Source of the DNA: a virus
Lineage: Duplodnaviria; Heunggongvirae; Uroviricota; Caudoviricetes
Direction: 5' to 3' (one strand)
Virus record (IMG/VR): IMGVR_UViG_2695420596_000005
Coordinates: 1-28,070 of that record
Length of the DNA stretch: 28,070 nt
In this document: in pieces, positions 3,335-28,070 of the stretch
How the letters are laid out: each line of letters begins with the position of its first letter
Position numbering within the stretch: the stretch's first letter is position 1
Program-made: the position numbers and the translations under genes
Notes under the pieces: generated by a model
Told to the model about the DNA's origin: nothing
The model's database searches: none
The model's input: only the letters and a program-made list of their open reading frames with translations

Positions 3335-3340
3335 GACTCC

Positions 3341-6673: not shown

Positions 6674-6728
6674 CAGTTGTCTCCTTTTCAGTCAGAGGCG
6701 ACGCACTGCGCCGCCTGCATATTACTTA

Positions 6729-10543: not shown

Positions 10544-10558
10544 CGCTCTGTTGCAAGC

Positions 10559-10581
10559 AACCCCAGTGTTAAACTGGGGTT
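10559..10581 (+). terminator. Hairpin terminator candidate after the accessory gene
   Basis: AACCCCAGT-gttaa-ACTGGGGTT followed by ATTCTTGC. Confidence 0.45.
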
Positions 10582-10692
10582 ATTCTTGCTAAGAGACCTT
10601 TCTACGGCATCAGTAAACAAAACGAACTATCAGTTGGAGTCTGAGCAAGTTCAGCCTAAACTAGCGACAGCACTACGTTAAGGGAGGTCGCT

Positions 10693-10953
10693 ATGTTCCG
10701 TTGTCCGCTTTGTGGCGCATCTGCCCGTATCCGCACCAGTCGTCCGGAAAATGATTCAAACACCGTGCGGCAAAAGTATTACCAGTGTAACAACCTGGAA
10801 TGCGGCGTATGCTTCTCAACACTGGAAGCTTTCCATAAATTCACATCGAAACACGCCTCCGGCATCCACTCTTCAGAAGGTATCCCGTGGCATGAGCTGC
10901 CAGCTTCACACAGGGGAAACAATCAGATGAGCTTGCCTTTACCTCAGAATTAA
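10693..10953 (+). CDS. ogr: Zinc-finger late transcription activator, Ogr/Delta family
   Basis: MFRCPLCGASARIRTSRPENDSNTVRQKYYQCNNLECGVCFSTLEAF: CxxC...CxxxxC arrangement and similarity to P2 Ogr. Strong AAGGGAGG Shine-Dalgarno. Confidence 0.85.
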   Translation: MFRCPLCGASARIRTSRPENDSNTVRQKYYQCNNLECGVCFSTLEAFHKFTSKHASGIHSSEGIPWHELPASHRGNNQMSLPLPQN

Positions 10954-11092
10954 CAGGCAGAATTGCCGGAGTAACAAAAACGCGATAGATTACGCGCGGG
11001 TGCCTTTCGGCTGATGGTCGGAGGGAATACCCGAAGGCCAGATGTGGAAAGGCCCCGGAAAACATCTCTGTTTAACCGAGGCCCTAACCGCA

Positions 11093-12181: not shown

Positions 12182-12216
12182 AGTGCAATCTCCCCTTACT
12201 TATCCGGAGGCAATTA
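11110..12216 (-). mobile_element. Insertion sequence, IS481-family-like (~1.1 kb)
   Basis: Single DDE transposase ORF. The right boundary is set where identity to the tfa copy at 940-1220 begins (12217/12218). The left boundary is approximate, set from an imperfect terminal inverted repeat (GTTAGCGCCTCTCCGGAAAAGG versus TAATTGCCTCCGGATAAGTAAGG). Confidence 0.6.
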
Positions 12217-12217
12217 A

Positions 12218-12499
12218 CCATACGATAAATGGGATGGTGAAAAATGGGTGACAGATACTGAGGCACAACATCGTGCTGCAGTAGAAGCGGCAGAAACCAA
12301 GCGCCAGTCACTGGCTGATGCGGCAATGGCTTCCATAAGTCTGATTCAGTTGAAGTTGCAGGCCGGGCGGAAGTTGACGCAGGCAGAAACCACCCGGCTT
12401 AATGCCGTGCTGGATTATATAGACGCGCTGAACGCAATGGATATAAACATGGCACCAGATATCAACTTGCCGGAAATACCACTGGCAGCAGCCAGTTGA
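12218..12499 (+). pseudogene. Truncated tail-fibre assembly gene (3' remnant only)
   Basis: Identical to the 3' part of the tfa at 609-1220 from nt ~940 onward; identity starts abruptly at the IS end, leaving the last ~83 codons without the native start. Confidence 0.75.
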
Positions 12500-12505
12500 A
12501 TATAA

Positions 12506-14119
12506 CTAAGCCGCCCTCACGATATAGTTAAATGCAATATTGCGGGGGCGGGTTTCACTACCACCTGTGTTACCAATACTTCCTCGTGAATGAAGCGTTG
12601 GTGATGGAATCAAACTCCCTCCTGTATTTGTGGCATCAAGCCCCCTGCCTTGCGTATATGTTTTTTTGAAAATTGTGGCCAACTCCCATTCATCCTTTGT
12701 GTCATATCCATCGTTAGCTACAACAATATGGCGGTGTTTTTCCAACATCCCGTTTTGAATGCTCAATAAAGCGCGTGCCGCATCAATTCCTCGCCCATCA
12801 TCCCAGCCACGGATAAATTCACCGCGTAAGTCTGGTAATTTATTGGTGGGGTAAGCCCTTGCCAGTTTTGGGTACTTTTCAGAAGAAAATGCTGCGCCGT
12901 TACATTTCAGCCATCCCGTTGGCGGCGTGGCTGAGGGCCATGGAACGGGCACACCAACGGGCAGTGCAGAGCCTTCCCCCAAACCAAGGTAATCAAGAAC
13001 TCCCTGAGTGCTGGTTTTACCAAGAATGGCACGTCCAACACTTGTCAACGCGGTTAACGCGGCACGATCTGCCCCTGTAAAATATGGGAGTTTATCTGCT
13101 GATGTAGCAAGCTCTGCCAGCGCCGTCAGGGTGGCATCCTTCGGTTGCTTACCCGCAAGCGCGTTAGTCATGGTGGTCGCAAAATTCGGGTCATTGCCCA
13201 GCGCCGCAGCCAGTTCGTTCAGCGTGTTCAGTGCATCAGGTGACGAATCTACAAGTGCGGCAATCGCGGCCATAACGAAAGCCGTGCTTGCGATCTGGGT
13301 ACTATTAGTCCCCTGTGGCGCTGTTGGTGTTGTTGGCGTTCCGGTCAGTGCCGGGCTGTTTAATGGTGCTTTCTTGTTCGTTTCATCCATTACCGCCTTA
13401 ACAGCTTTTGGTGTCGCTGCCAGCGTTTCAGACGTGCTGTTCGTGGCGCTACTGAGCTGAACAATTCCTTTTTGTGTAGTGGTGGCGTTCTGGGCGGTAT
13501 ATTTCCCGTTAGCCAGGTCATATGCAGCCTTAACCGCTTTCGGTGTTGCGGCCAGTGTTTCTGATTCACTGTTAATTGCACTGCTTAACTGAGTAAAACC
13601 TTTTACGGTCAGCGAGGCGTCCGGGTGACGTCGTGACTGTTCGTGCTCTGAGATTTTATCATCCACATATTTGCGGGTTGCCAGAACCACAGACGGGTCG
13701 ATTTTCAGCGTGATGGCTTCGGTGTTCGTGACAACCAGAATCATGCGGATAGTCTGGGTGCGTCCACTGCCTTCCTGCAACTGCGGTTTGTACGTTTCCG
13801 GGCAGTTTGCCACCGCAATGAGTACACCTTCATCATCATAAAGACCAATCTCACGGATCCAGAATCCTCCCTCGTTTTCAGGGATGATTTGCTCCGCAAT
13901 AATCTGGCTCTGATTGTTAGGGTCAACACTCAGAAGATTCAGCGGTGCAATGCGTTTCTGGTTAATCAGTTTTGTTTGTGCAGGGTCTGGTGTTGGTAAC
14001 ACACCATTTGCATCACCAACGGCCATTTGCGTCAGATTCAGCTTACTGCCGAGCATCGTCGCGTTAGCCAGTCGTGCCGCGCCCTGATTAGTCAGAATGG
14101 CGTAGTATTTCACTGTCAT
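12506..14119 (-). CDS. H: Tail fibre protein, P2 gpH-like N-terminus with the Sv2 C-terminal domain
   Basis: 537 aa. N-terminal two-thirds similar to remembered P2 H (AVANCPETYKP, EHEQSRRHPDASLTVKGFTQLSS, TPKAVKAVMDETNKKAPLNSPALTGTPT). C-terminal 158 aa identical to cassette 1227-1703. Confidence 0.9.
   Translation of the reverse strand: MTVKYYAILTNQGAARLANATMLGSKLNLTQMAVGDANGVLPTPDPAQTKLINQKRIAPLNLLSVDPNNQSQIIAEQIIPENEGGFWIREIGLYDDEGVLIAVANCPETYKPQLQEGSGRTQTIRMILVVTNTEAITLKIDPSVVLATRKYVDDKISEHEQSRRHPDASLTVKGFTQLSSAINSESETLAATPKAVKAAYDLANGKYTAQNATTTQKGIVQLSSATNSTSETLAATPKAVKAVMDETNKKAPLNSPALTGTPTTPTAPQGTNSTQIASTAFVMAAIAALVDSSPDALNTLNELAAALGNDPNFATTMTNALAGKQPKDATLTALAELATSADKLPYFTGADRAALTALTSVGRAILGKTSTQGVLDYLGLGEGSALPVGVPVPWPSATPPTGWLKCNGAAFSSEKYPKLARAYPTNKLPDLRGEFIRGWDDGRGIDAARALLSIQNGMLEKHRHIVVANDGYDTKDEWELATIFKKTYTQGRGLDATNTGGSLIPSPTLHSRGSIGNTGGSETRPRNIAFNYIVRAA
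12974..12999. other. hix/gix-like recombination site within the H gene (reverse complement identical to site A)
   Basis: TTCCCCCAAACC-AA-GGTAATCAAGAA is the exact reverse complement of 134-159. Confidence 0.55.
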
Positions 14120-14724
14120 GCGTTTACTCTCAGATTATCAATTAAATGAATGGCTGGGGCAGGGAAATAATCCCCTTCGACAATAATGGACTCCGGGGTG
14201 TAGGGATAAACCGTCAGGGCATCGCCGTGATAGCATCCCGTACCAACGAAAATCTTTCCGTTCACACTCAGGCTGATCGCCAGCCCCGTCAGATGGCGAC
14301 TTACTGGTTTTGCATCCGCAATAAGGCGCTCAAGTTCCTGATACATTTCATCGGTGATGCCCTGATCAAGTACTCCGACAACAATGCGAAATGTTCCCGG
14401 TTCCTCGTTGAGTTGCCACCACTCCTTTACTTCAATCAGGTAGCCGAGAGGCTCCACGGCTCTTCGCAGTGCGCTGATGGTCCCTTTGTGTCGGTGTATC
14501 AGCCATGCATCACGAATCACCTGTCGCTTTGTCTCTTCCGGCCAGTTGCGATCCCAGCGGTCAACGGAAAATGCCCAGGCGAGATAAGGCAGCAGATGCA
14601 CCGGGCAGGTGTCCGGCGACCACAGCGTGTTGAGGTCTACCGGAATGTCTGTAATGCGTGTTCCGACGGCTTCGGCACAACGCATGAAATTGCTGGCTGA
14701 TGGTGGTAACAACGAATTACTCAT
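14116..14724 (-). CDS. I: Baseplate protein, P2 gpI-like
   Basis: Start taken at MSNSLLPPSASN (14724); similar to remembered P2 I (LLPYLAWAFSVDRWD, RLIADAKPVSRHL). Overlaps J stop and H start. Confidence 0.8.
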   Translation of the reverse strand: MSNSLLPPSASNFMRCAEAVGTRITDIPVDLNTLWSPDTCPVHLLPYLAWAFSVDRWDRNWPEETKRQVIRDAWLIHRHKGTISALRRAVEPLGYLIEVKEWWQLNEEPGTFRIVVGVLDQGITDEMYQELERLIADAKPVSRHLTGLAISLSVNGKIFVGTGCYHGDALTVYPYTPESIIVEGDYFPAPAIHLIDNLRVNA

Positions 14725-15613
14725 TGCGTCCACCTTCGCTGATGGTGAATGACTCACAGCGCGCCGCCTGTATGTCGCTGATGGCCATATTCTGTGTGGG
14801 TTCGATTATCTCCACGCGTTGCACACCGTGCACATGCAGTGCGGCAGCAATGGCGGACAACGCCACGTCCTGACCGATAAGCCCCTGCTCAGCCAGCCAC
14901 TTCCTGAACGACGATTCAGCCGCGGCCAGAATAGGTTCGGATTCCGGGCCGGGGTAAAAGTACAGTTTTGCATTCAGCCGCCATGTCACGATTCTGGCGC
15001 TCTGTACGGTCAGGCGGTCGGCCACCGGGCGGGTATCCTCTGCATTCAGAACGGCGCGAACGGTATTAAGCAACGCCTCCGTTGCTGTGCCGTCGCCTTC
15101 AGTGGACAGGATGGAAACCGTCACACAGGCCGGAGACGGGCTGATGGCCCGCGCATCACGCACCAGACCGCTGGCGCTGCGTGCAAAATACTCGTATGCA
15201 CCTGACGGACCAGCAACACTCAGGCCGTCATACGCCCGTTGCGCCCGCAATCTCAGCGAGGTGTCACTCTCCATCACCGCGTCGGTGGTATCCGTTGCCG
15301 GAGTGATAACCAGGCGCTTTGTGTTCATATTGCCCGCGAGGTTGTCCAGGTTTGTCCCTGAACCGTGGCTTAACATGCAGGCGCGAGCGCCCTCGTTAAC
15401 CCGCTGGCGTAACAGCATTTCACGAAAAGACATGGTTTGAGCGATAACGTTCAGGGGTTCCGATTCCAGCTCCAGCGCGGCGGAGACGGCTTCACGCTGT
15501 TCGGCAGGATAGGACGCAATCATCATGGCCTTTGTGTCAGCCAGAATTGCCTCAAAATCAGGCTCCGCGATGATGGCGGGTTCCGGTAACTGGGAAAGGT
15601 CAACAGCAGGCAT
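14717..15613 (-). CDS. J: Baseplate assembly protein, P2 gpJ-like
   Basis: 298 aa, between W and I in conserved order. Confidence 0.8.
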   Translation of the reverse strand: MPAVDLSQLPEPAIIAEPDFEAILADTKAMMIASYPAEQREAVSAALELESEPLNVIAQTMSFREMLLRQRVNEGARACMLSHGSGTNLDNLAGNMNTKRLVITPATDTTDAVMESDTSLRLRAQRAYDGLSVAGPSGAYEYFARSASGLVRDARAISPSPACVTVSILSTEGDGTATEALLNTVRAVLNAEDTRPVADRLTVQSARIVTWRLNAKLYFYPGPESEPILAAAESSFRKWLAEQGLIGQDVALSAIAAALHVHGVQRVEIIEPTQNMAISDIQAARCESFTISEGGRNE

Positions 15614-15616
15614 GAT

Positions 15617-15967
15617 TTACTCTCTCAGCGTGATGGTTAATTCAACATTCTGCATGGTCTGCATGACAGTGCCCGACAGCGTCACCCCGGCGCGGCCTCC
15701 TGCCTTCCAGACAACGTCGATAGCGTCCAGGGCAATGCGGGGTTCCCATCGTGTCAGCGCAATCACGGCAGCACTCATGCATTGCAGACGCGTGGTGTTA
15801 TTCATGGGTTCGTCAATCAAATCAGGCACAAGGCTGCCATATTCCCGTCGCATAACCCGGCTTGCCAGCGGGGTGGTCAGGATGTCCCTGACTGACTGTT
15901 TCAGGTGCTCCATATCGTTCAGGTTTCCCGTTCCGTCCGGGTTCATTCCTGTGTAGCGGGTTGTCAC
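15617..15967 (-). CDS. W: Baseplate wedge protein, P2 gpW-like (gp25 family)
   Basis: 116 aa, size and position as P2 W. Confidence 0.75.
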   Translation of the reverse strand: MTTRYTGMNPDGTGNLNDMEHLKQSVRDILTTPLASRVMRREYGSLVPDLIDEPMNNTTRLQCMSAAVIALTRWEPRIALDAIDVVWKAGGRAGVTLSGTVMQTMQNVELTITLRE

Positions 15968-16545
15968 TGCGGGCCTCCTGTCGAATAGCTGCCACCTTTA
16001 ACGCCACCGTGTTTATGCGTATGCACTGTGATGCCGTTTGAGGTGAAATTGCCGCCGCTGTGCGTGATATTGCCGCTCATCTTTCCCCCTTTTGTGACGT
16101 CAAGCGTCGCCGTTCTCAGAAGGTCTGTGCATTCCACGACGGGCGTATCCAGTGTCACGCTGACGGATGCCTGCAGGGTGGCTGTTTTCATGCCGCTAGC
16201 GCTCAGTGCGCCTGCGTCCGCGTCGTAGCGGAACACCGCGCCATCCGGCGCGCTGACCACGATTTCTTTCAGGCTTTTGCCGGGGGCCGGAATAGCATCA
16301 CTCCACAGGCTGCCAATTATCATGGCGGTTTCCGGGTTGCCGCCAATGCAGGCAATTACCACCTGTTCGCCTGGTGATGGCGGCAGCCACACATTGAAGG
16401 CTCCCGCGCGCGTGGTGTTCCAGCGCAGCCAGCCTGTTTCCAGTTCGCCGCTGCGAACGCGCACGCGCCAGGACTTCTCATCAACTTCAGAGATGATCCC
16501 GGTGCGAATGATGTTGCTCAGCAGTCGCATGAGTTCTGCGCTCAC
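15964..16545 (-). CDS. V: Baseplate spike/assembly protein, P2 gpV-like
   Basis: 193 aa immediately upstream of W with overlapping stop/start. Confidence 0.75.
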   Translation of the reverse strand: MSAELMRLLSNIIRTGIISEVDEKSWRVRVRSGELETGWLRWNTTRAGAFNVWLPPSPGEQVVIACIGGNPETAMIIGSLWSDAIPAPGKSLKEIVVSAPDGAVFRYDADAGALSASGMKTATLQASVSVTLDTPVVECTDLLRTATLDVTKGGKMSGNITHSGGNFTSNGITVHTHKHGGVKGGSYSTGGPQ

Positions 16546-16575
16546 CGTACAGCCTCCGCAATCCGGCCCAGCACC

Positions 16576-16692
16576 GTGTTATAAATCAGGCGCTCATCTG
16601 CCTGGCTGATACCCAGCAGCTCACGTACCGGGTATCGCCATCATCGGTATCGGTGATGTCGTCCTCTGCGGGTCCGGGGTTGGTTCTGGCAA
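16576..16692 (-). CDS. Small acidic ORF (38 aa) in the M-V gap
   Basis: ATG at 16692 preceded by CAGGAGTG Shine-Dalgarno; encodes MSMVARTNPGPAEDDITDTDDGDTRYVSCWVSARQMSA. Not in the supplied track (too short). Confidence 0.2.
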
Positions 16693-16803
16693 CCATACTC
16701 ATGGGGTTCACTCCTGAAAAAATCGGGCGGTGGGTGCGCGGTGTAAGCGGTCACGGAGTCAAACCGGAACACCGCGCACGCCGCCCGCTGACGGGGTCAG
16801 TCG

Positions 16804-17604
16804 TTAACCGCGCTTCGCCTTCTGCGTCGCGGTGGTTTTTCGTGTTGCAGGCTTCCGCGTTGTCTTTTTACTTTTGCTGCTTTCGTCCTGCGCCTGCGGT
16901 GTGCTGGCATCTTCTGGTGCGGCTGCGGAATCGGCTTTTTTCAGGGCGCGGGAAAGGGTTGCAATCTCGCGTTTCACACCTGCGTTCGGGTTCAGGTGCA
17001 TTGCTTCGCGCAGCAGCTTCAGTGACAGGGCCATGCTGTCCGCATCACTCAGGCCACGGCGGGCAAAGGCGCACGCTTTGCATAATTTGGCGCGCACTTC
17101 GTCCGGCATGTCCTGGTCGGTGACAATCTCCCGGAGGGTGTCCAGTGGTTCGATAAAGGCGGACAAATCCGCGTCGGCATCCGTCCCGGCCTGCGTCAGT
17201 ACCGGATTACAGATTTCTTCGGTCAGTACCGTGGCAGCAGTACGGCCAAAGTTATCCGGCATGATGAGGTTGTGACGGACCACATACGCACCAATACGCA
17301 ACGCCAGCGGAAGATCGCCACAGTCAATCGCCCACACCATCAGCGTGGCAATCACTTCATCCTGCTGCCCGCCGTCAGCCTCCAGCGTTCCCTCAATCCA
17401 GCCGGAAAAATCCGGCAACAACTCTTTTTTGATGGCGGCTTTCGCGCTTCTGGCCTGTACGCCCTTAAGCCGGGCCTGTGCCAGACGCAGACGATACAGC
17501 ACCTCTTCATGCGCGGTACGCGCGGCGTGGTCCACGCCTTCATTCGCCCGGCCTGCGCGCTGTGCCATCACGTTCTGCCAGTGTTGCTGTGCAGGAGTAA
17601 TCAT
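16804..17604 (-). CDS. M: Terminase small (endonuclease) subunit, P2 gpM-like
   Basis: 266 aa with lysine/arginine-rich C-terminal tail and DMPDEVRAKL motif remembered from P2 M; downstream of the capsid gene. Confidence 0.8.
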   Translation of the reverse strand: MITPAQQHWQNVMAQRAGRANEGVDHAARTAHEEVLYRLRLAQARLKGVQARSAKAAIKKELLPDFSGWIEGTLEADGGQQDEVIATLMVWAIDCGDLPLALRIGAYVVRHNLIMPDNFGRTAATVLTEEICNPVLTQAGTDADADLSAFIEPLDTLREIVTDQDMPDEVRAKLCKACAFARRGLSDADSMALSLKLLREAMHLNPNAGVKREIATLSRALKKADSAAAPEDASTPQAQDESSKSKKTTRKPATRKTTATQKAKRG

Positions 17605-17649
17605 TTTTTCTCTCCGTTACAGGCGGGCATGATGCCCGCCGTGAGTTGA

Positions 17650-18702
17650 TTAGCTGTCGGCGAACTTCAGGCCAGTAACCATCGCGCACTTGCCATAGTC
17701 TTCAACGACATAAGCGTCATTGATGGACTGGTAGGTGGCGATGCGGTTGTATTCCGGCTCGTCTTTCATCAGGCGACGCATTGAACCTTTCTGCCAGTAA
17801 ATCGACAGGTTGTTGAACGAGGTGATCAGCATCGTTGCATCCGGGAAGAACGGTGCAAGGAACACGCCCAGCCCGCCAATGGTGCGCGATGACAGGATGA
17901 GCTGCCCGGCAAGTAATTCCGCATTGGGATTCTGGCCGCTGATGCTGTTCAGCACGGGCAGACGCAGCGAGTTAAACAGGTTGCGCCCCATAATCACCAC
18001 AAGGTCGTCAGCTTCCTTGTGCCATTCATCCAGCAGGGATGAACGCGCGTCCTGTACCAGTGCATCAGCGTTCGCATACTTACCCGCGTGCGCCACGGTG
18101 TTGTCCATGTTGCGGGAGGTCAGCGTCACGTCATTCATAACGCGTTCGCTGGCGTCGGTTCTGATGTGCTCCAGCCATCCCACGTTAACGTCCTGAAGCA
18201 GCTTGTTGGTGCTGAAGTTGGACTCATCCGCGTGAGACGTGCCGTTGAAACCGATCATGATGCGGTCAAGCGCCACCTGCCGGGCAATCTGTGCGCTGAT
18301 GCGGGACTGAAAATCAGGATGTGCCGCCCAGGCATCAAGCTGCGGATATGAAATAAACGTGTCGTAGTTCACCTGTTCGCACTGGTATTTGCGGTTTTTC
18401 AGATCAACCACGTTATTCGGGTTACGGCGTTTTGTGCCGTCATAACCGGTATTCGTGCGTGCAATTGGCCCGGTGGTGTCCAGGAGGATTTTTTCGCCTT
18501 TCTGGTCGGTCACGCCGATCACGTTAATTCTTTTTGTAAATTCGGTGCTTTCCTTTGAGGCGTTTCCAAAACGCTGCTGCACCGAGGGTTCCACGGTAAA
18601 TCGCGATACCAGTGCGGAAACCGGAATATTATTAAGCGACGCCTGCTGCGCCATATAGCAACCCAGCTTGTTGCGGGTAATATCTGACATCACCAGATTC
18701 AT
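17650..18702 (-). CDS. N: Major capsid protein, P2 gpN-like
   Basis: 350 aa; FTVEPSV, IMIGFNG, MLITSFNNLSIYW, YVVEDY motifs align with remembered P2 N. Confidence 0.9.
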   Translation of the reverse strand: MNLVMSDITRNKLGCYMAQQASLNNIPVSALVSRFTVEPSVQQRFGNASKESTEFTKRINVIGVTDQKGEKILLDTTGPIARTNTGYDGTKRRNPNNVVDLKNRKYQCEQVNYDTFISYPQLDAWAAHPDFQSRISAQIARQVALDRIMIGFNGTSHADESNFSTNKLLQDVNVGWLEHIRTDASERVMNDVTLTSRNMDNTVAHAGKYANADALVQDARSSLLDEWHKEADDLVVIMGRNLFNSLRLPVLNSISGQNPNAELLAGQLILSSRTIGGLGVFLAPFFPDATMLITSFNNLSIYWQKGSMRRLMKDEPEYNRIATYQSINDAYVVEDYGKCAMVTGLKFADS

Positions 18703-18725
18703 AAAAAATTTGCTCCTTTGTCTTA

Positions 18726-19562
18726 TCAGAAGTCAGCCAGCTGGTCGGAGGCTGCACCTGTTGCGGTGAACCGGTTCTGCGGATCGCCGTCCTGCGTGCG
18801 CAGTTTTTCCTTCAGTGCTGCCAGCTCTGTGGTCAGTGACGTAATTTTCTGGCGGTCCTGCTGATGGCGGGTTTCCAGCACATTAAAACGGTCGATAATG
18901 TCGGCCTGTGACGTTGCGACGCCTTCCACCGCTTCCTGAATACGGGAAAAACTGGCGTCATCCGCTTTGCGGCCACGGCCAATAATCCCCATTACGCGGT
19001 TAAACCACTGGGTGCCTTCTTCCTGGCGTTGTTCTGCCATTTCGATGATTTCAGACTCGATGGCTTCGGAGATAAGCGGCGCTTCACCCTGGATACTGTT
19101 GAACGTCATCACCGCCTGACGTTGCTGTGCCGTGAATTTCAGGCGCTCAGTGCCCAGGCTTGCCGGGGTGTCGGTCATCGCCAGCCCGACCAGATAGGCG
19201 CGCCCGTTAACGGAGAACTGCGGGTGCAGTTCGATACTGGAATAGATTTTCTTGCCGTCCGCGACAAGCTGCTTCATGCGCTCGGTCGGTTCGATTTCTG
19301 CATACAGCGCAGTACGTCCGGCCAGCGGACCTTCCGTAATGTCTTCCGTACTCAGTGCGGTGACATCGCCCATTGCGGAAAATTCGCTTGACGGGCATGG
19401 CGAGAGATAGTGCTCAACGTTCACGCGGGCAGCGTAAACATCCGGGTTGAAGTTCTCGGCGGCTTCACGCAGATGCACCGGACTGATTTCACGGCCATCA
19501 ACAGTTGATCCGGAGACAGCCACGCGAAACTTTTTGCGGGATGTCTTTTTTTCATTAGCCAT
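18726..19562 (-). CDS. O: Capsid scaffolding protein, P2 gpO-like
   Basis: Start placed at MANEKKTSRKKFRVAVSG (ATG 19562, GAGGGG Shine-Dalgarno); similar to the remembered P2 O N-terminus and central YLVGLAMTDTPASLGTE. Confidence 0.8.
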   Translation of the reverse strand: MANEKKTSRKKFRVAVSGSTVDGREISPVHLREAAENFNPDVYAARVNVEHYLSPCPSSEFSAMGDVTALSTEDITEGPLAGRTALYAEIEPTERMKQLVADGKKIYSSIELHPQFSVNGRAYLVGLAMTDTPASLGTERLKFTAQQRQAVMTFNSIQGEAPLISEAIESEIIEMAEQRQEEGTQWFNRVMGIIGRGRKADDASFSRIQEAVEGVATSQADIIDRFNVLETRHQQDRQKITSLTTELAALKEKLRTQDGDPQNRFTATGAASDQLADF

Positions 19563-19716
19563 AGTTTTTGCCCCTCTGACTGGTTCTTCAGTCATGATGG
19601 CAAAGCGTAACAGGCTGATACAAAGGGCTTTTGTTGTAAGAAAACGGCCAGAACAGGGGGTTAAGGAGAACAGTTTCGCGCGCGGGTAATCTTCCTGTAA
19701 TTACTCAGGGGGAGCA

Positions 19717-21468
19717 ATGATTCAGGACGCTTTTGTGCGCCAGCGTGCGCGGCAACTTTACTGGCAGGGTTATCCGCCCGCAGAAATATCACGTCTGATG
19801 GGAATAAACCCGAACACGATTTATGCGTGGAAAAAACGTGACCAGTGGGATGAAACGCCACCCGTGCAGCGTGTCACGCAGTCCATCGATGCGCGTCTCA
19901 TCCAGCTTACTGAAAAACAGAATAAAACAGGCGGTGACTTTAAGGAAATAGACCTGCTGACCCGGCAGCTTAAAAAGCTGCATGATGGCCAGCCGGATGC
20001 GACGGCCGCAGGAAAGAAAGGCCGGGCGAAAAAACTCAAAAATCATTTCACGCCGGAACAGATTGCCGCACTGCGGGAAAAAATCATCAGCAGGCTGGAG
20101 TGGCATCAGCGGGGCTGGTTTGACTCCCTGACCCTTTGCAGGGAAGCCGGGATACGTAACAGGATGATCCTGAAATCCCGACAGATTGGGGCGACCTGGT
20201 ATTTTGCACAGGAAGCACTGCTGATGGCGCTGCGTGACGATGTGGCGCAACCTTACCAGCGTAACCAGATTTTTTTGTCTGCGTCGCGTCGTCAGGCGTT
20301 CCAGTTTAAAAGCATTATTCAGAAGGCCGCGGCTGAAGTTGATGTGGAGCTGAAAGGGGGCGATAAAATCATCCTCTCCAACGGCGCAGAGCTGCATTTT
20401 CTCGGCACTTCTGCTGCGTCGGCACAGTCCTATACGGGCAATTTTTATTTTGATGAATTTTTCTGGGTCAGTCGCTTTGCTGAACTGCGCAAGGTGGCTG
20501 GCGCTATGGCAACCCTCAGCGGACTGCGGCGCACCTACTTCTCCACGCCATCCACCGAAACGCACGAGGCATACGCCTACTGGAACGGCGACCGCTGGAA
20601 TGAGAAAAAGGCCTCGCATAAACGCCAGCGTTTTTCTGTGGACTGGAAAACGCTGCATAACGGGCTTATCTGCCCTGACCGGACGTGGCGGCAAATTGTC
20701 ACGCTGGAAGATGTGGTTAATCACGGCTGGAAACACACTGATATCGACGAAATTCGTGATGAAAACACCGAAGACGAGTTCCTCAATCTCTATATGTGTG
20801 AGTTTGTCCGCGAAGGGGAATCGGCATTTAACCTGAATATCCTGATTGGCTGCGGTGTTGACGGATACGACGACTGGAAAGACTGGAAACCTTTTGCTCC
20901 CCGCCCGATGGGGAATCGTCCGGTATGGATTGGGTATGACGCAAACGGCAGTAGTGGCAACGGCGACAGCGGCGCTGTGTCCGTGGTGGTTCCTCCGGCT
21001 GTTCCTGGTGGCCGTTTTCGAACGGTGGAGACGCGACGCGTTCAAGGGCTGGAGTTTGAAGAACAGGCCAGAGTCATTGAAGAGTTCACGTATCGCTACA
21101 ACGTGGAACACATCGGCATTGATGTGACGGGCGGGAACGGGGAGGCTGTTTATCAGATAGTGAAACGGTTTTTCCCTGCTGCTATTCCGTACACCTTCAC
21201 GCTGTCATCAAAACGGTCGCTGGTACTGAAAATGCTGCACATAATGCGTGCCGGGCGGTGGGAATACGATCGCGCCGAACGCGAGCTGGTCGCGGCCTTT
21301 AACGCCGTGCGTAAGGTGAAAACACCGGGCGGCTTTATCACTTACGAAACGGACCGCGCGAGGGGGATCAGCCACGGCGACCTTGCGTGGGCAACCATGC
21401 TTGCTGTCATTAACGAACCGATTGGCGGCGAAGGAGAAAACGAGCGTTTCACGGTTATGGAGTTCTGA
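19717..21468 (+). CDS. P: Terminase large (ATPase) subunit, P2 gpP-like
   Basis: 583 aa, divergent from O across a ~150-bp promoter region; ATPase-like KSRQIGATW and YFDEFFW motifs; stop overlaps Q start. Confidence 0.9.
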   Translation: MIQDAFVRQRARQLYWQGYPPAEISRLMGINPNTIYAWKKRDQWDETPPVQRVTQSIDARLIQLTEKQNKTGGDFKEIDLLTRQLKKLHDGQPDATAAGKKGRAKKLKNHFTPEQIAALREKIISRLEWHQRGWFDSLTLCREAGIRNRMILKSRQIGATWYFAQEALLMALRDDVAQPYQRNQIFLSASRRQAFQFKSIIQKAAAEVDVELKGGDKIILSNGAELHFLGTSAASAQSYTGNFYFDEFFWVSRFAELRKVAGAMATLSGLRRTYFSTPSTETHEAYAYWNGDRWNEKKASHKRQRFSVDWKTLHNGLICPDRTWRQIVTLEDVVNHGWKHTDIDEIRDENTEDEFLNLYMCEFVREGESAFNLNILIGCGVDGYDDWKDWKPFAPRPMGNRPVWIGYDANGSSGNGDSGAVSVVVPPAVPGGRFRTVETRRVQGLEFEEQARVIEEFTYRYNVEHIGIDVTGGNGEAVYQIVKRFFPAAIPYTFTLSSKRSLVLKMLHIMRAGRWEYDRAERELVAAFNAVRKVKTPGGFITYETDRARGISHGDLAWATMLAVINEPIGGEGENERFTVMEF

Positions 21469-22514
21469 TGAGCAGAAAAAACAAAAAAGTGCGCATGAGT
21501 TCACGCATTGATCTCGCTGATGCGCTCAGGAAAGAATCATCGCTCAGTGCATTCACATTTGATGGTCCTTATCGCCTGACCGGGCATGACCTGCTGGACA
21601 ATATGTACTGTGCTGATAACGGGCGGTGGTATGAAACCCCGGTGGACTGGTACGGTCTGGCAAGAGCAGCCCGGCAAACGTCCTGGCATCAGTCTGCGCT
21701 TTACTTTAAGCGCAATGTATTACTCGGTTGCTACATCCCGCACCCGCTGCTTTCCCGGCAGGATTTCTCGGCGCTGGCGCTGGACTGGTTTGTGTTCGGT
21801 AATGCATTCCTTGAGCTTCGAAGCAATATGCTCGGCGAACCGCTTAAATTACGGCACGCCCTGGCGAAATACATGCGACGCGGAAGCGATCTTGAATCAT
21901 GGTGGTATGTGCAGGATGGTAAGGACGCGTTTCAGTTTCGCCCTGGCAAAGTATGCCACCTGATGAATCCGGATATTAACCAGGAAATCTACGGCATGCC
22001 GGAATATCTTGGCGCATTACTCTCGGCCAGCCTTTCTCATTCGGCGGACATGTTCAGAAAACTGTACTACGACAACGGATCCCACGCCGGGTGCATCATC
22101 TACATCGGTGCAGCGCAGGTAAACCGCGAAAGCATGGACTCCCTGAAAGAAACGTTACAGGGTGCGCGTGGTGGTGGTGCATTTAAAAACGTGCTCATTC
22201 ATGCGCCCAACGGGGGCAAAGAGGGGGTGCAAATTTTGCCGTTCCAGCAGATCACCGCAAAGGATGAGTTCATGAATGTTAAGGCGGCATCCCGTGATGA
22301 TGTACTGGCTGCGCACCGCGTTCCGCCGCAACTGATGGGGGCGATGCCGGGCGAAAAAAGTGCGTTTGGTGATGTGGAGAAGGCCGCGCGGGTTTATGCA
22401 ATTAACGAGCTGATGCCCGTTATGGAGGCTATGAAGCACATCAATGACTGGCTTGGCGAAGAGGTGATCCGCTTTAACCCTTACGCACTGTTAGACACCC
22501 AGCCCACATCCTGA
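21468..22514 (+). CDS. Q: Portal protein, P2 gpQ-like
   Basis: 348 aa, translationally coupled to P, last gene before the cos-proximal non-coding region. Confidence 0.85.
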   Translation: MSRKNKKVRMSSRIDLADALRKESSLSAFTFDGPYRLTGHDLLDNMYCADNGRWYETPVDWYGLARAARQTSWHQSALYFKRNVLLGCYIPHPLLSRQDFSALALDWFVFGNAFLELRSNMLGEPLKLRHALAKYMRRGSDLESWWYVQDGKDAFQFRPGKVCHLMNPDINQEIYGMPEYLGALLSASLSHSADMFRKLYYDNGSHAGCIIYIGAAQVNRESMDSLKETLQGARGGGAFKNVLIHAPNGGKEGVQILPFQQITAKDEFMNVKAASRDDVLAAHRVPPQLMGAMPGEKSAFGDVEKAARVYAINELMPVMEAMKHINDWLGEEVIRFNPYALLDTQPTS

Positions 22515-22542
22515 CGCGCTTCGCTTGTCTGCTGCTTCGTCG

Positions 22543-22567
22543 GGGCATAAAAAATTTATGCCCCGAC
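22543..22567 (+). terminator. Hairpin downstream of portal gene
   Basis: CGGGGCAT-aaaaaattt-ATGCCCCG; no clear U-tract, so terminator function is uncertain. Confidence 0.35.
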
Positions 22568-22983
22568 TCTCCAGCTCCTGTATCAATCAGATAATTTCAC
22601 GACGTCTTCCAGCTTATCGCCATCATCGACGGTCAGGCTCTTACGCAATCCCACCGCGTTGACTGCATGTTCTCGCCGCCTCAGTGCGATTTTGACGGCC
22701 TTATCTGTCACCCCATCAAATCAAAAGCCCTCACGTCTTTTTCACGCTCAGCGTGAGAAATACAGCCATTCTGTTGTGTCGCTGCGACATCGTTCAGGGG
22801 ATGCTATTTACCCCCTGAAACGCGGGCTGTTCCCCCGTCACCTGCGCGCAGAAAAAGCGCGTTTTTTTGTGCACGCACGGATCCCTGACGGATCCAGCCG
22901 CCACGCGGGCCAGAAGGGCAAAAATTCGTTCAAAAAAATTGTGCAAATTTGTGCACTATCGTGCATGTAAATTCATAAAAAAA

Positions 22984-23011
22984 TTACAGAAAAAAGGCCG
23001 CTTTCGCGGCC
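22984..23011 (-). terminator. Rho-independent terminator of the ATPase-protease operon
   Basis: GGCCGC-tttc-GCGGCC stem-loop, 8 nt past the protease stop, followed on the minus strand by TTTTTCTGTAATTTTTTT. Confidence 0.6.
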
Positions 23012-23018
23012 ATAAAAA

Positions 23019-25223
23019 TTACGTGTCGAGAGAAATTTGTGTGCGCAGTTGAATAGGATTCAGAATTGTATATCGCTGGCGAATAACATTATATAAATCA
23101 AAGTCTTTTACCCTTACGCTTATTACCATCGCATATTGCATATCAGGGGCTGAAACTCCCTTAACATGGCGCGAAGAATCTCGGGCATGATACCGTATAT
23201 CAAAAACTGGATCGCTTAATAATGTATCAGCACTGAACTTTTTGCTTCTGTGCAAACAAGTTTCCCACTTATGACCTTCACTCCTACACTCCCTTTCAGT
23301 CTTATACTGGCTTTTTTGACCAAAGAAATCATCTGTATCGGTATCGTCAAGGCCGAATCTTGGGCGGAAAGTTACCTGCATACCGGCCCTTGTATAGTTT
23401 ACTGAATGTTCAGGATCTACTGGGGTTTGAATGCATAAAGTAGCGGTAAGCTCAAATGCTTCGTCAAAGGGAACATCAGGGAATGGGATCGGTGCCCTTA
23501 AATATTTATTTTTTGCTAATGAACCATAGTAAATTACTGTAGCAGTATCATTTGGACAATCGATTAAAACGTTAGGATCCTCACTAAACCGTCCCCAACC
23601 GATATGTTCACGCGAATATTTTCTTGATGTTTCAGCATGATGAACAAGCAACGCTTTCAATGCAATGGTGTTCAATGGAGTTCCTGATAGAGCCGCAACT
23701 CCAGCGGCCGTTCTCAATGCTAATGGAGAGGCATAACTGGTTCCTTGAACTCCAACTATAGAACCAAGCAGAGGGTTGTAAGTGTAAAAAGGCTCGTCGT
23801 CGCTTCCACCAAAAATAACACCATCAGGTTTAACGAATCCGGGGCTTCTGCCTGGCCCAATACAGCTATATGGTGCCCGCCCCCATTTTTCACCGCTACG
23901 ATCAGCAGCACCAATCGCTAGCGCGTTTACCATATCGGAAGGAGGTTGTATTCTCGCTGCATCACCGTCCTCATTGCCATCATTCCCAACAGCAACAGTA
24001 AGTAATATCCCATGCTTAGCACAGATTTGGTCTAAAACAGCAGTCCATACATGAACCTCATCATCACCAATTGGAAGATGAGGACCAATACTTAGATTAG
24101 CGAACTTATAGTCACCACTATCAAGAACGGACTGTATTTTCTTAAGGACATCAAATAAATCCCAATTGCCATTGTCACCTGATGTCGGTGAAAGAACTCT
24201 ATAATGATCTACATTCATAAACGGTCTTTTAAAAGAAGGTGCATTTTCCTCGACACGTCCGAATAAGAAAGTGGATGTCACTTCATTACCGTGCTGCAAT
24301 AATAATCCGCTTGTTTCTTTGGTGTCTGGATACACGTATTCCGTAACCCAATTACTCAAGTCAGCTGTCCCCAAGCCACCATCAAAAATGGCAATACGTT
24401 CGGATTCAAGAACAGCTTTAGAATTAGGGAGCTCCGGTGTAACTATATTAGATAACTTTCTGACAATGTTCGGCTGAGTACACCTGAGAGACGGCATCGG
24501 CCGCACAACGCGGATTAATGAAAAATCGAGTGTTTTTTTCATATCTTCAGGTCGCGCGTGTGCAACGATGAAAGTCAGCCCACCAACTTGGATTCTACTT
24601 TTGTAATCAACAGAGACATCATATTGTGCCGCATAGCTAATATAGGCTTTAACGATATCATCGTCTTCAACCCCAGCATGAAGAACCACTTCAAATTTTA
24701 TCAAATCACTTTTCGCATGCTCAAAATTGCGTGCTCTCTCTTTTCCTTCAAAAAAGCTAACACTTTCAATTTCGATCAAATCCTTTTGTACGCCCTTCGG
24801 AGCTGTAGGGGAATTTAAAATTTCCTTAAATCTTATAACGGCATCATCATCACCGCTAACAAACAGTTGCGCCGTTACTAAGTCCTTATTCTGATCGCAC
24901 TGACGTGCCGCTTTCCGTGGGCGAATGATTACCTGACGGCTGCCGACATCCCGTAAACCTGTCGCTCTAAGCAATCCTTCCGGAAAGTAGCTTTTACCCA
25001 AAAACGCTGGGTGTAAAGTTAAATTGAATACACTCTCCCCCCTTGGCTTAGCCGCATCATCCAAACTGCGAAAGCGTGAGAGTAAAGTATCAATCTCTGG
25101 GTTTAAATGCTCCCTTACTTCTTCAAGAGTATAGGGATAGCGCTTACCATCCCTTCCTTTAGGCAAAGGTTCCTTTTTTGTCAGAACATGACCGTTACCT
25201 AAAAGTAAGTTCCTTTCCATCAT
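23019..25223 (-). CDS. S8 subtilisin-family serine protease with extra N- and C-terminal domains (IetS-like)
   Basis: 734 aa. Catalytic-triad motifs in subtilase order: Asp (RIAIFDGGLG), His (LLQHGNEVTS), Ser (GTSYASPLA), plus VAVGNDG. About 270 aa N-terminal and 250 aa C-terminal have no motif I recognise. ATG overlaps the upstream ATPase stop (ATGA). Confidence 0.8.
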   Translation of the reverse strand: MMERNLLLGNGHVLTKKEPLPKGRDGKRYPYTLEEVREHLNPEIDTLLSRFRSLDDAAKPRGESVFNLTLHPAFLGKSYFPEGLLRATGLRDVGSRQVIIRPRKAARQCDQNKDLVTAQLFVSGDDDAVIRFKEILNSPTAPKGVQKDLIEIESVSFFEGKERARNFEHAKSDLIKFEVVLHAGVEDDDIVKAYISYAAQYDVSVDYKSRIQVGGLTFIVAHARPEDMKKTLDFSLIRVVRPMPSLRCTQPNIVRKLSNIVTPELPNSKAVLESERIAIFDGGLGTADLSNWVTEYVYPDTKETSGLLLQHGNEVTSTFLFGRVEENAPSFKRPFMNVDHYRVLSPTSGDNGNWDLFDVLKKIQSVLDSGDYKFANLSIGPHLPIGDDEVHVWTAVLDQICAKHGILLTVAVGNDGNEDGDAARIQPPSDMVNALAIGAADRSGEKWGRAPYSCIGPGRSPGFVKPDGVIFGGSDDEPFYTYNPLLGSIVGVQGTSYASPLALRTAAGVAALSGTPLNTIALKALLVHHAETSRKYSREHIGWGRFSEDPNVLIDCPNDTATVIYYGSLAKNKYLRAPIPFPDVPFDEAFELTATLCIQTPVDPEHSVNYTRAGMQVTFRPRFGLDDTDTDDFFGQKSQYKTERECRSEGHKWETCLHRSKKFSADTLLSDPVFDIRYHARDSSRHVKGVSAPDMQYAMVISVRVKDFDLYNVIRQRYTILNPIQLRTQISLDT

Positions 25224-26302
25224 TTAATCCCCCACTTTTGTAATTTATTCGCGATTGTTGGATGTGAAACACCAACTAATTCAGCTATCTTCCTATTTGA
25301 AAAACCGTCAAAATGATATTTAATTATATTGAGATCATTATCGCTAAACTCATCCAATGAAACCCTCTCCGTAATTACGGCTTCTATTAATGAGCTTTCA
25401 AATGGAATATTTCTAAGTACCTCATTCTTTTTGGAGAAATTCAAAATACGGTTAATGATGGCAAAGGACATGCCATCTAATAATGGTGCAAGTTTTTTAG
25501 ATAGTTCAGGTTCAATATTATGATTGACTAAATATCTATCTATCAGTTCTACTGATGGCATATTAAATTTAAGGATGTGCTCAAATCGACGCCAAACAGC
25601 CGGATCTAAGATATCAGGGTGATTAGTCGCAGCAACAAGAAGCGAGGTCGCTGGCCACTCATCTATGGTCTGTAGGAGTACAGTAACTAAACGTTTTAAT
25701 TCTCCAACGTCCCTGTCATCATCACGTCTTTTTGCAACAGCATCAAATTCATCAAGCAAAAGGACACATGGTTTCTCTTTGGCATAATCCATAACGGATT
25801 TAATATTATTACCTGTTTTTCCCAAAAGAGAACTCATTACAGATGAGAGATCCAATGTTAAAAGAGGTAAATTTAACTTTGCAGCAAGCCAATGTGCGGA
25901 CATTGTTTTGCCTACGCCTGGCGGGCCAGAAAGTAAAACCGTCTTCACAGGTTCAAGACCAGCTTTGAACAAAGAAACCGCATTCTCTCTTTCGTTAACA
26001 ATTGACTCCAGCTTCTTTGAGATATCCGTATTCCATACAGGTTCTTCAACAATTGCGTTGACAGATGTTTCCTGCAAAAGGTTTCGTCTGGAGTCTCCAT
26101 CCACAGGCATAGGAGCCTTACTAGATGCCCCACGTAATACTGTTCCCTCAGCAACTAACGAAGCCAGCTTAGAAGCTAAAGCCTCATCATTTTTACGGAT
26201 GTTGTTAATCATCTTTCTGCATAGGAGTGTAAATGCATTTGCGTTGCCTTTGATGCCTTGCTCGATGAGTTTGAAAAGTTCATCCTCCCTCACGTTTACC
26301 AT
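25220..26302 (-). CDS. AAA+ ATPase with C-terminal helix-turn-helix (IetA-like)
   Basis: 360 aa. Walker A LLSGPPGVGKT, Walker B VLLLDEFDAV, sensor-1 LLVAATNHP. C-terminal NRKIAELVGVSHPTIANKLQKW resembles an HTH. GGGGG Shine-Dalgarno before ATG 26302. Confidence 0.8.
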   Translation of the reverse strand: MVNVREDELFKLIEQGIKGNANAFTLLCRKMINNIRKNDEALASKLASLVAEGTVLRGASSKAPMPVDGDSRRNLLQETSVNAIVEEPVWNTDISKKLESIVNERENAVSLFKAGLEPVKTVLLSGPPGVGKTMSAHWLAAKLNLPLLTLDLSSVMSSLLGKTGNNIKSVMDYAKEKPCVLLLDEFDAVAKRRDDDRDVGELKRLVTVLLQTIDEWPATSLLVAATNHPDILDPAVWRRFEHILKFNMPSVELIDRYLVNHNIEPELSKKLAPLLDGMSFAIINRILNFSKKNEVLRNIPFESSLIEAVITERVSLDEFSDNDLNIIKYHFDGFSNRKIAELVGVSHPTIANKLQKWGIK

Positions 26303-26359
26303 AAAACCCCCAATAAAACATCAGCTTGTGTAAGCTGGTAACTACATTAATGAAAATCA

Positions 26360-26396
26360 TTGACTAATGTTACCACTCTTGCTGGCGTAATTCAAA
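26360..26396 (-). promoter_or_regulatory. Candidate sigma-70 promoter for the ATPase-protease operon
   Basis: On the minus strand TTGAAT (-35, 26395-26390), 17-bp spacer, TAACAT (-10, 26372-26367), ~60 nt upstream of the ATPase start. Found by eye only. Confidence 0.3.
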
Positions 26397-26680
26397 GAGT
26401 ATCCTTACTTTTTTACTGTATGGATAATCAGCATAAAATCTATCCAGTTGGGTTACTCGAACATACTGTCAATACTTGTTTCCAACGATTGATCAGTTCT
26501 ACAGTTTTATCTCCTTCACTTGTGTTGGCAGCATGCTTATTCCTGAACCAGCTCGATTAACCCATGCTCATCGCGGTAGGGATAGAACGCTGCTAAACGC
26601 TCAAAGTCTGCCTGTTCGTGTGTGTTCAGGACTTTTGCCATGTGTGATAACCTGCGCTATCTGTGGTTGTTTGTGACTTG

Positions 26681-26732
26681 GTGTACTTATAAGTACACCT
26701 TGCGCGCAAGCTTAGTGTACTTATAGGAACAC
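26681..26732. promoter_or_regulatory. Operator-like repeats upstream of the repressor gene
   Basis: Perfect 18-bp palindrome GTGTACTTATAAGTACAC (26681-26698) and near-repeat GTGTACTTATAGGAACAC (26715-26732), centres 34 bp apart, ending 6 bp before the C start codon. Confidence 0.4.
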
Positions 26733-26737
26733 TGTCA

Positions 26738-27046
26738 ATGCTTATCGGTGAAAAAATTAGAGTGATTCGTGAATCAGAGGATTTAACGCGCGAAGAATTT
26801 TGCGGCCTGATTGATGTGCCTATCGGCACTTTGCGTCGTTATGAAACGGGGCGGATTGAAAACATAGGGGGCGAAGTGCTTATCAAGATTGTTAATCACC
26901 CTCGCTTTTTTAAGTACATGAATTGGCTTATGACGGGAAAAACAAATGAGGCTGCTGGGCAGATCAGTCCCTCTCTCTCCCCTGATGGGCCAGAAAACAC
27001 ATCGTCTTCTCAAAAATCCCGCAAGACTGGTACACAGCCCGGTTAA
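26738..27046 (+). CDS. C: Immunity repressor, P2 C-like (HTH)
   Basis: 102 aa; EKIRVIRESEDLTREEFCGLIDVPIGTLRRYETGR...NHPRFFKYMNWLMTGK aligns with remembered P2 C; directly upstream of, and co-oriented with, the integrase. Confidence 0.8.
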   Translation: MLIGEKIRVIRESEDLTREEFCGLIDVPIGTLRRYETGRIENIGGEVLIKIVNHPRFFKYMNWLMTGKTNEAAGQISPSLSPDGPENTSSSQKSRKTGTQPG

Positions 27047-27095
27047 TCATGGAACGCTGGGGGCATGGTGGTCTTGTAACGCTGGGGTTTCACGA

Positions 27096-28070
27096 ATGAG
27101 CATAAAATCAATTCCGGGAGGGTATCTTCTTGACATGCGCCCTGAGGGGCGTAAAGGCAAACGCATTCGCAAAAAATTTAAAACGAAATCGGATGCAGTT
27201 TTATATGAGCGGTGGGTGCTGGCGCAACAGCATAACAATGAGTGGAAAGGAAACTCCATTGATCGCCGTCCGCTGTCGGTGCTTATTGACTTGTGGTGGA
27301 AATACCACGGCCAGCTAATGAAGTCAGGGCATAACACGCGCCTTAAATTGCTGCGCTTGAGTGAGGCAATGGATGACCCGTGTGTGCATAAACTTAATAC
27401 AACGATGCTCACCGAGCTACGTGTGTCCAGGATAGAGCAGGGGATACAGCCCAGCACCATTAATCGAGAGATTGGGGCGTTAAGCGCGATGTTTACCGCA
27501 CTCATCTCATCCGGCCATTTTCTTAACGATAACCCCGTTCAAGGCCTTAAAGGAATGAAGGTTAACGAGCGCGAAATGGGATATCTGAGTAAGTCTGAAT
27601 GTGTTCAGTTGCTGGATGCACTGGCTGAAAATCCCGATGAACGGCTGGCTGTCGAAATCCTTCTGTCGACCGGGGCGCGATGGGGCGAGGTAGCGGCACT
27701 GGAGCAGCGCCGTGTTCTTCATTGTCGAATCACTTTTTCAAAAACGAAGAACAGCAAAAACCGTACCGTTCCTATTTCTGAAAGCCTGTTTGAAAAGATC
27801 AAAAAACGGGGCGGGAAACTGGTGTTTCCGACGCTGGATTATCCATTGGTTCGCGATGTCATCAAAACGGTCGCACCTGATGTTCCTGACGGCCAGGCTG
27901 TTCATGCGCTGCGCCACACCTTCGCCAGTCATTTCATGATGAACGGCGGCAATATTCTGACGCTCCAGAAAATTCTGGGGCACGCAAAGATTCAGACAAC
28001 GATGATTTATGCCCATCTTGCGCCGGATTACTTGCAGGATGCGGTGAGATTTAATCCTATTGCTGGGTAA
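27096..28070 (+). CDS. int: Tyrosine integrase, P2 Int-like
   Basis: Start at MSIKSIPGGYLLDMRPEGRKGKRIRKKFKTKSDAV (ATG 27096), near-collinear with the remembered P2 Int N-terminus. C-terminal HALRHTFASHFMMNGGNILTLQKILGHAKIQTTMIYAHLAPDY carries the R...HxxR...Y catalytic signature. The gene ends at the window edge. Confidence 0.9.
   Translation: MSIKSIPGGYLLDMRPEGRKGKRIRKKFKTKSDAVLYERWVLAQQHNNEWKGNSIDRRPLSVLIDLWWKYHGQLMKSGHNTRLKLLRLSEAMDDPCVHKLNTTMLTELRVSRIEQGIQPSTINREIGALSAMFTALISSGHFLNDNPVQGLKGMKVNEREMGYLSKSECVQLLDALAENPDERLAVEILLSTGARWGEVAALEQRRVLHCRITFSKTKNSKNRTVPISESLFEKIKKRGGKLVFPTLDYPLVRDVIKTVAPDVPDGQAVHALRHTFASHFMMNGGNILTLQKILGHAKIQTTMIYAHLAPDYLQDAVRFNPIAG

Follow-up and report, generated by a model that had tools for sequence, protein, structure and literature searches.

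Why does an anti-phage defence operon stand directly beside the immunity repressor of a P2-type prophage? The locus lies in a 28,070-nt stretch of tailed-phage DNA (IMG/VR record IMGVR_UViG_2695420596_000005, positions 1 to 28,070; hereafter the window), in which an ATPase gene, ietA, is the first intact gene divergent from the repressor gene C across a gap of 435 bp (26303-26737), an arrangement that an earlier note on this DNA had correctly described. The gene order is that of a P2-type prophage: late genes, P, Q, cos, the cargo hotspot, the place of the early operon, C and int, with portal and terminase genes left of the cassette and int starting 50 nt downstream of C (Table 1). The identity of C to P2 C extends across 96% of C length, and C is 53% identical to the C proteins of SEN4/SEN5 and phiT5282H. 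No homologue of B or A lies between C and ietA in the window, and the replication genes, A and associated early genes, are missing there and present in relatives. The earlier note had read this layout as a defence operon occupying the slot of the early operon, possibly under control of the phage repressor.

Table 1. Coordinates of the genes, predicted regulatory sites and junctions discussed in the text (window positions unless stated otherwise).
Feature	Position	Strand	Basis or remark
ietS, S8 (subtilase) peptidase, 734 aa	23019-25223	-	PADLOC IetS E = 6.6e-41; Pfam Peptidase_S8 E = 4e-17
ietA, AAA+ ATPase, 360 aa	25220-26302	-	PADLOC IetA E = 3.6e-89 and 4e-77; Pfam AAA E = 9.6e-31
Three TGGTAA/TTACCA motifs, at -73, -39 and +1 from ietA ATG	26296-26375	-	Candidate operator of the IetA helix-turn-helix
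257-bp leader travelling with ietAS	26303-26559	-	96.5-100% identity in the best 30 of 144 E. coli genomes
Small hairpin with U-rich tail, ietA 5′ UTR	26322-26337	-	6 pairs, 3 G-C; weak
P_iet, predicted promoter: TTGAAT (26395-26390), 17-nt spacer, TGgTAACAT (26375-26367)	26367-26395	-	Weight-matrix 11.5
Three GGATA/TATCC motifs ~21 bp apart, just upstream of the P_iet -35	26400-26445	.	Conserved in E. coli, Enterobacter and L014
Promoter-like TTTACT-16-TAAAAT, divergent from P_iet	26412-26439	+	Score 10.5
Remnant of the cox-position gene: codons 1-28 of 92, plus 6 out-of-context codons	26537-26641	-	E2348/69 alignment
Cassette left edge	26556-26562		In other loci: L003 8734-8738; L002 ~6264; L020 ~3930
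Deletion junction, TA microhomology	26558-26559	.	6,553 bp of E2348/69 missing
Pc candidate: TTCAGG-17-TGaTAACCT, within the retained cox remnant	26625-26653	+	Weight-matrix 6.5, weak
Two predicted operator half-sites, 26677-26698 and 26711-26732	26677-26732	.	22-nt direct repeat, 34-bp period
Pe, predicted early promoter: TTGACA (26738-26733), 18-nt spacer, TAAGCT (26714-26709)	26709-26738	-	Weight-matrix 11.45
C, P2-family immunity repressor, 102 aa	26738-27046	+	47% identity to P2 C; phrog_147 2.5e-31
Integrase	27096-28070	+	Pfam Int_N, Phage_integrase

By their profile matches, the two cassette genes are IetA and IetS, which together form the known defence system IetAS (Gao_Iet). As in that system, an AAA+ ATPase gene is followed by an S8 peptidase gene in one operon, with ietS directly downstream of ietA and a 4-nt overlap between them (25220-25223), and both proteins give strong PADLOC matches, IetA over nearly its full length. 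The Walker A (GPPGVGKT) and Walker B (LLLDEFD) motifs are legible in the IetA translation, as is the serine motif GTSYASP in IetS, and IetA ends in a borderline helix-turn-helix match (HTH_50, residues 335-359, E = 4.6e-06, 26.7 bits against a cut-off of 27 bits). IetAS has been characterized as a toxin-antitoxin-like pair with IetA as the antitoxin and a protease that is required for defence through an unknown mechanism (PMC13069673), and anti-phage or toxin-antitoxin activity is known for IetAS homologues (PMC13069673; bioRxiv 10.1101/2022.08.21.504612). By analogy, IetS would be the effector or toxin component. The window proteins show nothing distinctive compared with other IetAS systems, and several IMG/VR contigs encode an IetA of 100% identity; the upstream context alone differs. 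A search of genome contigs with IetA returned just one remote match and two loci in Vibrio, at 43% identity, which are too distant to be of use for defining the edges of the cassette. Directly after ietS, a near-threshold Rfam match to the 'Histone3 stem-loop' (22991-23036; 32 against 34 bits) was rejected as a false family assignment, and the element is really a GGCCGCGAAAGCGGCC-T6 terminator hairpin.

The P2-like prophage of E. coli O127:H6 E2348/69 (NC_011601.1, ~1867173-1902696) is 99.9-100% identical to the window over 12217-28070. The two elements share integrase, C, operators, IetA, IetS, portal and terminase, and E2348/69 has the same btuC-side attachment context that is seen in a contig of the sequencing run ERR124658. 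E2348/69 differs in retaining a 6,553-bp early operon and a 2.88-kb block with lysis genes, in having no insertion sequence (IS) at the position of window 11147-12216, and in carrying a 9.2-kb tail/ogr segment in the opposite orientation. Read from these alignments, the window is a defective derivative of the P2-like prophage that E. coli E2348/69 carries in intact form at btuC.

The two parts of the spacer between ietA and C are each 100% identical to the window in E2348/69 and lie 6.55 kb apart there. Window 26303-26559 corresponds to NC_011601.1 1875493-1875237 and window 26558-28070 to 1868685-1867173, and the two alignments share a 2-bp overlap, the dinucleotide TA at 26558-26559. The flanks of this joint carry no substitution relative to E2348/69, with 1460/1460 bases identical on the left (window 25100-26559, ending at 1875237) and 1511/1511 on the right (window 26560-28070, 1868683-1867173). 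The lost block runs from codon 29 of the 92-codon gene at the position of cox, through replication gene A and parM/parR, into the spacer before ietA, of which 121 of 378 bp are gone. In the E2348/69 annotation, the block comprises the rest of WP_001151410 (the 92-codon gene divergent from C), DUF4761 and DUF4754 genes, a MarR-like gene, several small ORFs, a replication endonuclease (the gene A homologue), ParM and a ParR-like protein. These alignments indicate that the 6,553-bp loss is very probably one simple, recent, illegitimate deletion of the microhomology type within a P2-like prophage, and the complete identity of the flanks to the intact prophage places the event very recently.

The distribution of the junction agrees with a recent origin. 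Among 5,426 complete E. coli genomes, 144 match the left 257 bp (26303-26559) and 235 match the part from 26558 on, and none holds the 435-bp spacer in one piece. The junction is absent from all 144 genomes with the leader, from the 11 IMG/VR loci and from phage phiT5282H, and the exact junction 40-mer has no match in GTDB representative genomes or JGI metagenomes; the junction-spanning sequence is TTCCTGAACCAGCTCGATTAACCCATGCTCATCGCGGTAG. The junction does occur in the Logan assembly of ERR124658, in a 30.7-kb contig that is 100% identical to window 20537-28070 and carries btuC-side chromosome, int, C, the fused ORF, IetA, IetS, portal and terminase. Two public contigs contain the 34-aa fused ORF, that of the ERR124658 assembly and another of 50-200 kb. 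Presence in the ERR124658 assembly, together with absence from the GTDB, JGI and IMG/VR collections, points to a rare, recent, natural variant.

Further lesions mark the same prophage. A second deletion of ~2.88 kb relative to E2348/69, at a 6-bp microhomology (CGGGTA, 16629-16634), removes part of a head-completion gene, tail X, holin, endolysin, LysB/LysC, R and part of S, and with these lysis genes lost the prophage would be unable to lyse its host. Between the end of ogr and a tail-fibre segment lies an insertion of 1,070 bp (11147-12216) with a 362-aa ORF for an rve-type transposase. It sits at the breakpoint of a 9.2-kb block (U, T, E, FII, FI, D′, ogr; 1936-11146) that is inverted relative to E2348/69, and 1-2150 and 12217-12990 hold duplicated segments associated with tail fibres and invertase. 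The window consequently lacks both a lysis cassette and a complete colinear set of late genes. Set against the E2348/69 sequence, the second deletion, the IS and the inversion show general prophage decay, and in defective P2-like elements it has been described that mobility genes decay and defence genes stay intact (PMC13586616).

Comparison with relatives shows the usual place of the cassette. The order in E2348/69 is cox-position gene, further early genes, replication endonuclease, ParM, ParR-like protein, IetA, IetS and portal, and in Enterobacter phage phiT5282H it runs from cox to A, IetA, IetS and portal; ietAS lies downstream of the early operon and beside cos/portal in E2348/69, phiT5282H and 10 of 11 IMG/VR contigs, and the 144 complete E. 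coli genomes with the leader likewise have it in this hotspot behind a full early operon. This is the gpA-gpQ cargo hotspot described in P2-like phages (PMC9122126, PMC13586616), also known for tin/old in P2, and the window cassette abuts its cos/portal side as in intact relatives. In contrast to an intact hotspot, the gpA side is gone and the cassette abuts the immunity region: all relatives examined have the cargo flanked by both gpA and cos/gpQ, and the window retains the cos/gpQ flank. Because relatives carry the cassette at the cos side together with the early operon, the cassette has stayed in place and the early operon has been lost. The proposal that the defence operon occupies the early-operon slot is therefore not borne out, since the cassette sits at its usual hotspot and the 6,553-bp deletion removed the operon. 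The earlier note had taken relatives with cox-to-A plus the cassette elsewhere as a sign against its reading; half of this applies, as relatives with both do exist, with the cassette in the same cos-proximal position rather than elsewhere.

At its left end the cassette has a sharp boundary, GGCC followed by AAGTA(A/G)TCG, which is common to two very different phage backbones. The E2348/69-type and phiT5282H-type A proteins are only 31% identical, and the two backbones turn homologous exactly at AAGTA(A/G)TCG(A/C)GCTGG, 260 and 267 nt before ietA, respectively. In strain no107, the E2348/69 backbone continues up to TGGCC and is then followed by a different cassette, encoding a DUF4760 protein. 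As a separate observation on this edge, 126 nt (42 codons) of gene A as annotated in phiT5282H overlap the conserved ietAS leader (L002 6138-6264); the same leader sequence is non-coding in the E. coli relatives, and the C-terminal tail of phiT5282H A is probably fortuitous.

The deletion endpoint in the window falls 3 nt inside this left edge, and a random deletion would end this near the edge with a chance of ~2-3%, if endpoints are uniform over the spacer and for what is a single event. The junction might accordingly stem from recombination at the level of the cassette, at a discrete left edge and for example by homology-facilitated illegitimate recombination, rather than from random internal deletion. 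The edge shared by two phages with such divergent A proteins, the DUF4760 cassette that joins the same backbone point in no107 and the closeness of the window junction to that point all favour this origin, which we nonetheless judge unlikely. Its basis is one event; joint and edge do not coincide exactly, since the cassette has lost its first 3 nt; the parR spacer is met by other cassettes at several different positions (query ends 317, 338, 360 and 435); and no terminal repeats or recombinase were found, the repeats having been sought by eye at both cassette ends in alignments A3 and A4. Equally doubtful is the course that such an event would have taken, with an incoming DNA end recombining homologously at the ietAS/cos side and illegitimately at cox. 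It is likewise improbable that ietAS moves as a discrete module whose left end (GGCC followed by AAGTAATCG, 260 nt before ietA) is prone to recombination and that the junction is a third independent joining at this point. If true, the locus could help to explain how cargo is exchanged in the P2 hotspot, a question left open by PMC13586616, and as a side effect the defence operon would react to repressor loss by way of read-through from the early promoter Pe. The outcome at the locus is the same however the joint arose.

Under the simple deletion that we prefer, one gene was truncated. The earlier note had suspected a cox remnant in a 34-codon ORF within the spacer, and apart from a one-base offset in its coordinates (26537-26641 here) this reading holds: the first 28 codons are exactly those of the 92-aa cox-position protein of E2348/69, and the last six come from the cassette leader. 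The statement that cox, B and A are absent thus stands for B and A, and the cox-position gene is truncated rather than absent. The full-length E2348/69 protein matches phrog_11533 (1.3e-54), and a Cox-like phrog_575 match (1.1e-07) is confined to residues 34-84, all of which are deleted in the window; Pfam has no family for the protein, and the weak link to Cox comes from PHROGs only. With 28 of 92 codons left, the window has no functional Cox-type first early gene. Separately, the segment 26560-26679, which joins the N-terminal part of the cox-position gene and its leader, is 80-85% identical in ~113 E. coli prophages with other C genes and operators, and this homology ends just before operator copy 1, at the boundary of the immunity module.

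Beyond this remnant, the predicted immunity switch is preserved. Palindromic operator-like repeats upstream of C, noted earlier, are confirmed as a 22-nt direct repeat of which copy 1 contains a perfect 20-bp palindrome (26680-26699); the 18-mer core occurs at only these two places in the window, with 0 expected in 100 shuffles. Pe has a perfect -35 hexamer, its spacer is exactly operator copy 2 (26711-26732), and copy 1 lies just downstream of the transcription start inferred for this promoter, which ranks third of all window sites by a simple sigma-70 weight matrix. The two half-sites are predicted binding sites of C. This arrangement resembles the switch of WPhi and P2 in combining a small C protein, two direct half-sites at a 34-nt period and a Pe directed toward the early genes (PMC1904263); in WPhi, the C operator is a direct repeat with 34 nt from centre to centre, O1 within the Pe spacer and O2 downstream (PMC1904263). 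The window differs from the WPhi/P2 switch in its half-site sequence, which marks a different immunity type, in that one half-site is itself a perfect palindrome, and in that the protein at the Cox position belongs to phrog_11533 rather than Pfam Phage_Cox and is truncated. The weak Pc candidate would give ~40 nt of overlap with Pe transcripts, inside the range of 35-82 nt for Pe/Pc transcripts in P2 and WPhi (PMC1904263). This immunity type is found in ~119 complete E. coli genomes, and same-immunity relatives are at least 95% identical, which makes operator conservation unusable as evidence. The modest gain here is a base-level map of the Pe/operator layout for this immunity type.

The cassette also appears to bring a promoter of its own. 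Its leader is 86% identical in phage phiT5282H and remains alignable in contig L014, a non-P2 phage context with an 85% identical IetA. A candidate promoter at 26360-26396 had been proposed earlier, and the minus-strand site P_iet within this interval ranks second in the window by the sigma-70 weight matrix, with hexamers and TG element conserved and the spacer variable across the window, E2348/69, L011, L012, phiT5282H and L014. P_iet falls below the threshold of a simple consensus scan, which returned 1 promoter against 1.1 expected by chance, and the case for it is made by the weight matrix together with conservation. TGGTAA/TTACCA hexamers at 26370-26375, 26336-26341 and 26296-26301 (plus-strand coordinates) overlap the P_iet -10 element and the ietA start codon and occupy identical positions in the window, L011, L012 and L014; the 22 such hexamers in the 28,070-nt window correspond to ~0.06 expected per 80 nt. 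Repeats resembling GTGGTAA precede the Vibrio ietA homologues (43% identity) as well. Since IetA has a borderline helix-turn-helix, these motifs are conserved and the pair is toxin-antitoxin-like (PMC13069673), P_iet is probably autoregulated by the C-terminal helix-turn-helix of IetA through the TGGTAA motifs, in the manner of a toxin-antitoxin operon. Taken with the GGATA/TATCC motifs, the sites across 26296-26445 suggest such autoregulation and perhaps a second factor.

Several further elements of the leader are recorded as observations. In E2348/69, two terminator-like hairpins lie ~160-230 nt past the promoter-like site 26412-26439 on the same strand (L003 8620-8691, -), and site and hairpins together could mark a small transcript, for which there is no Rfam match; with the hairpins deleted in the window, the divergent transcript would run antisense through the cox remnant toward C. 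The hairpin in the ietA 5′ UTR was rejected as a terminator or attenuator: its fold z-score is 0.37, an alifold consensus drops it, and it is broken in L011 and L015. Rfam scans of the right end of the window and of the E2348/69 spacer returned nothing relevant.

Could Pe now drive ietAS? A scan of the interval from Pe to ietA found no terminator apart from the 6-bp hairpin in the ietA 5′ UTR, and the E2348/69 spacer has no canonical terminator in the early-operon direction either. Repressor-sensitive read-through from Pe into ietAS is possible because no convincing terminator separates the two. In the ancestral prophage, IetAS lay between gene A, with parM/parR, and cos/portal and would have been transcribed from its own promoter, and the deletion joined the immunity region straight to the 257-bp cassette leader. 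C would still be made from Pc, bind the half-sites that bracket the Pe -10 element and start, and hold Pe off; with the Cox-position protein destroyed, the switch could not flip, and the element would be locked in the repressed state. IetAS would be expressed from P_iet as in intact lysogens, under autoregulation by the IetA helix-turn-helix through the TGGTAA motifs, and inactivation of C would add Pe transcripts that read through the cox remnant into ietA and then ietS. We give the regulatory parts of this model (C acting on Pe, the locked switch, expression from P_iet and autoregulation) an even chance or slightly better. P2-type repressors are not known to be SOS-inducible, and derepression would therefore be rare.

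A stronger claim would be that the cassette was placed under Pe and C by selection, such that loss of repressor function, for example through the anti-repressor of a superinfecting satellite or phage, boosts defence. Pe and both half-sites are intact, stand ~400 nt ahead of ietA in the same orientation and are separated from it by no canonical terminator, as such coupling would require. It is nevertheless quite improbable: the substitution-free flanks make the event very recent; the junction is limited to the ERR124658 assembly and one further contig, and is absent from the 5,426 complete E. coli genomes, GTDB representatives, JGI metagenomes and IMG/VR; it truncates a gene and has no designed features; and the cassette retains its own conserved promoter in a prophage that carries unrelated damage. 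The idea that a surviving early promoter puts the cassette under repressor control accordingly holds in that Pe is intact with no convincing terminator before ietA, and does not hold as a conserved design. Very improbable, finally, is a mis-joined assembly of a strain that really has the early operon. The left 12 kb of the window, rearranged relative to E2348/69 (duplicated tail-fibre segments and an IS), holds repeats of a kind that can confuse assemblers, but the junction has a 2-bp overlap and no repeat to mislead one, and recurs identically in the Logan assembly of ERR124658, with the fused ORF also in a second contig of 50-200 kb.

The few occurrences of the junction, its substitution-free flanks and the other damage to the prophage argue for ordinary prophage decay, rather than evolved regulatory design, as the reason that ietAS stands next to the repressor. 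As a whole, the element derives from a known prophage by ordinary, recent deletion and carries a known defence system in a known hotspot. Work on the expression of IetAS could draw on the conserved promoter and motif layout that accompanies the cassette. For the P2 family, the locus provides a clean and datable case of a locked-in defective prophage that keeps its repressor, integrase and an intact defence cassette, which fits recent surveys of defective P2-like elements, and it corrects a tempting misreading: a defence operon beside an immunity switch is here an accident of prophage decay.
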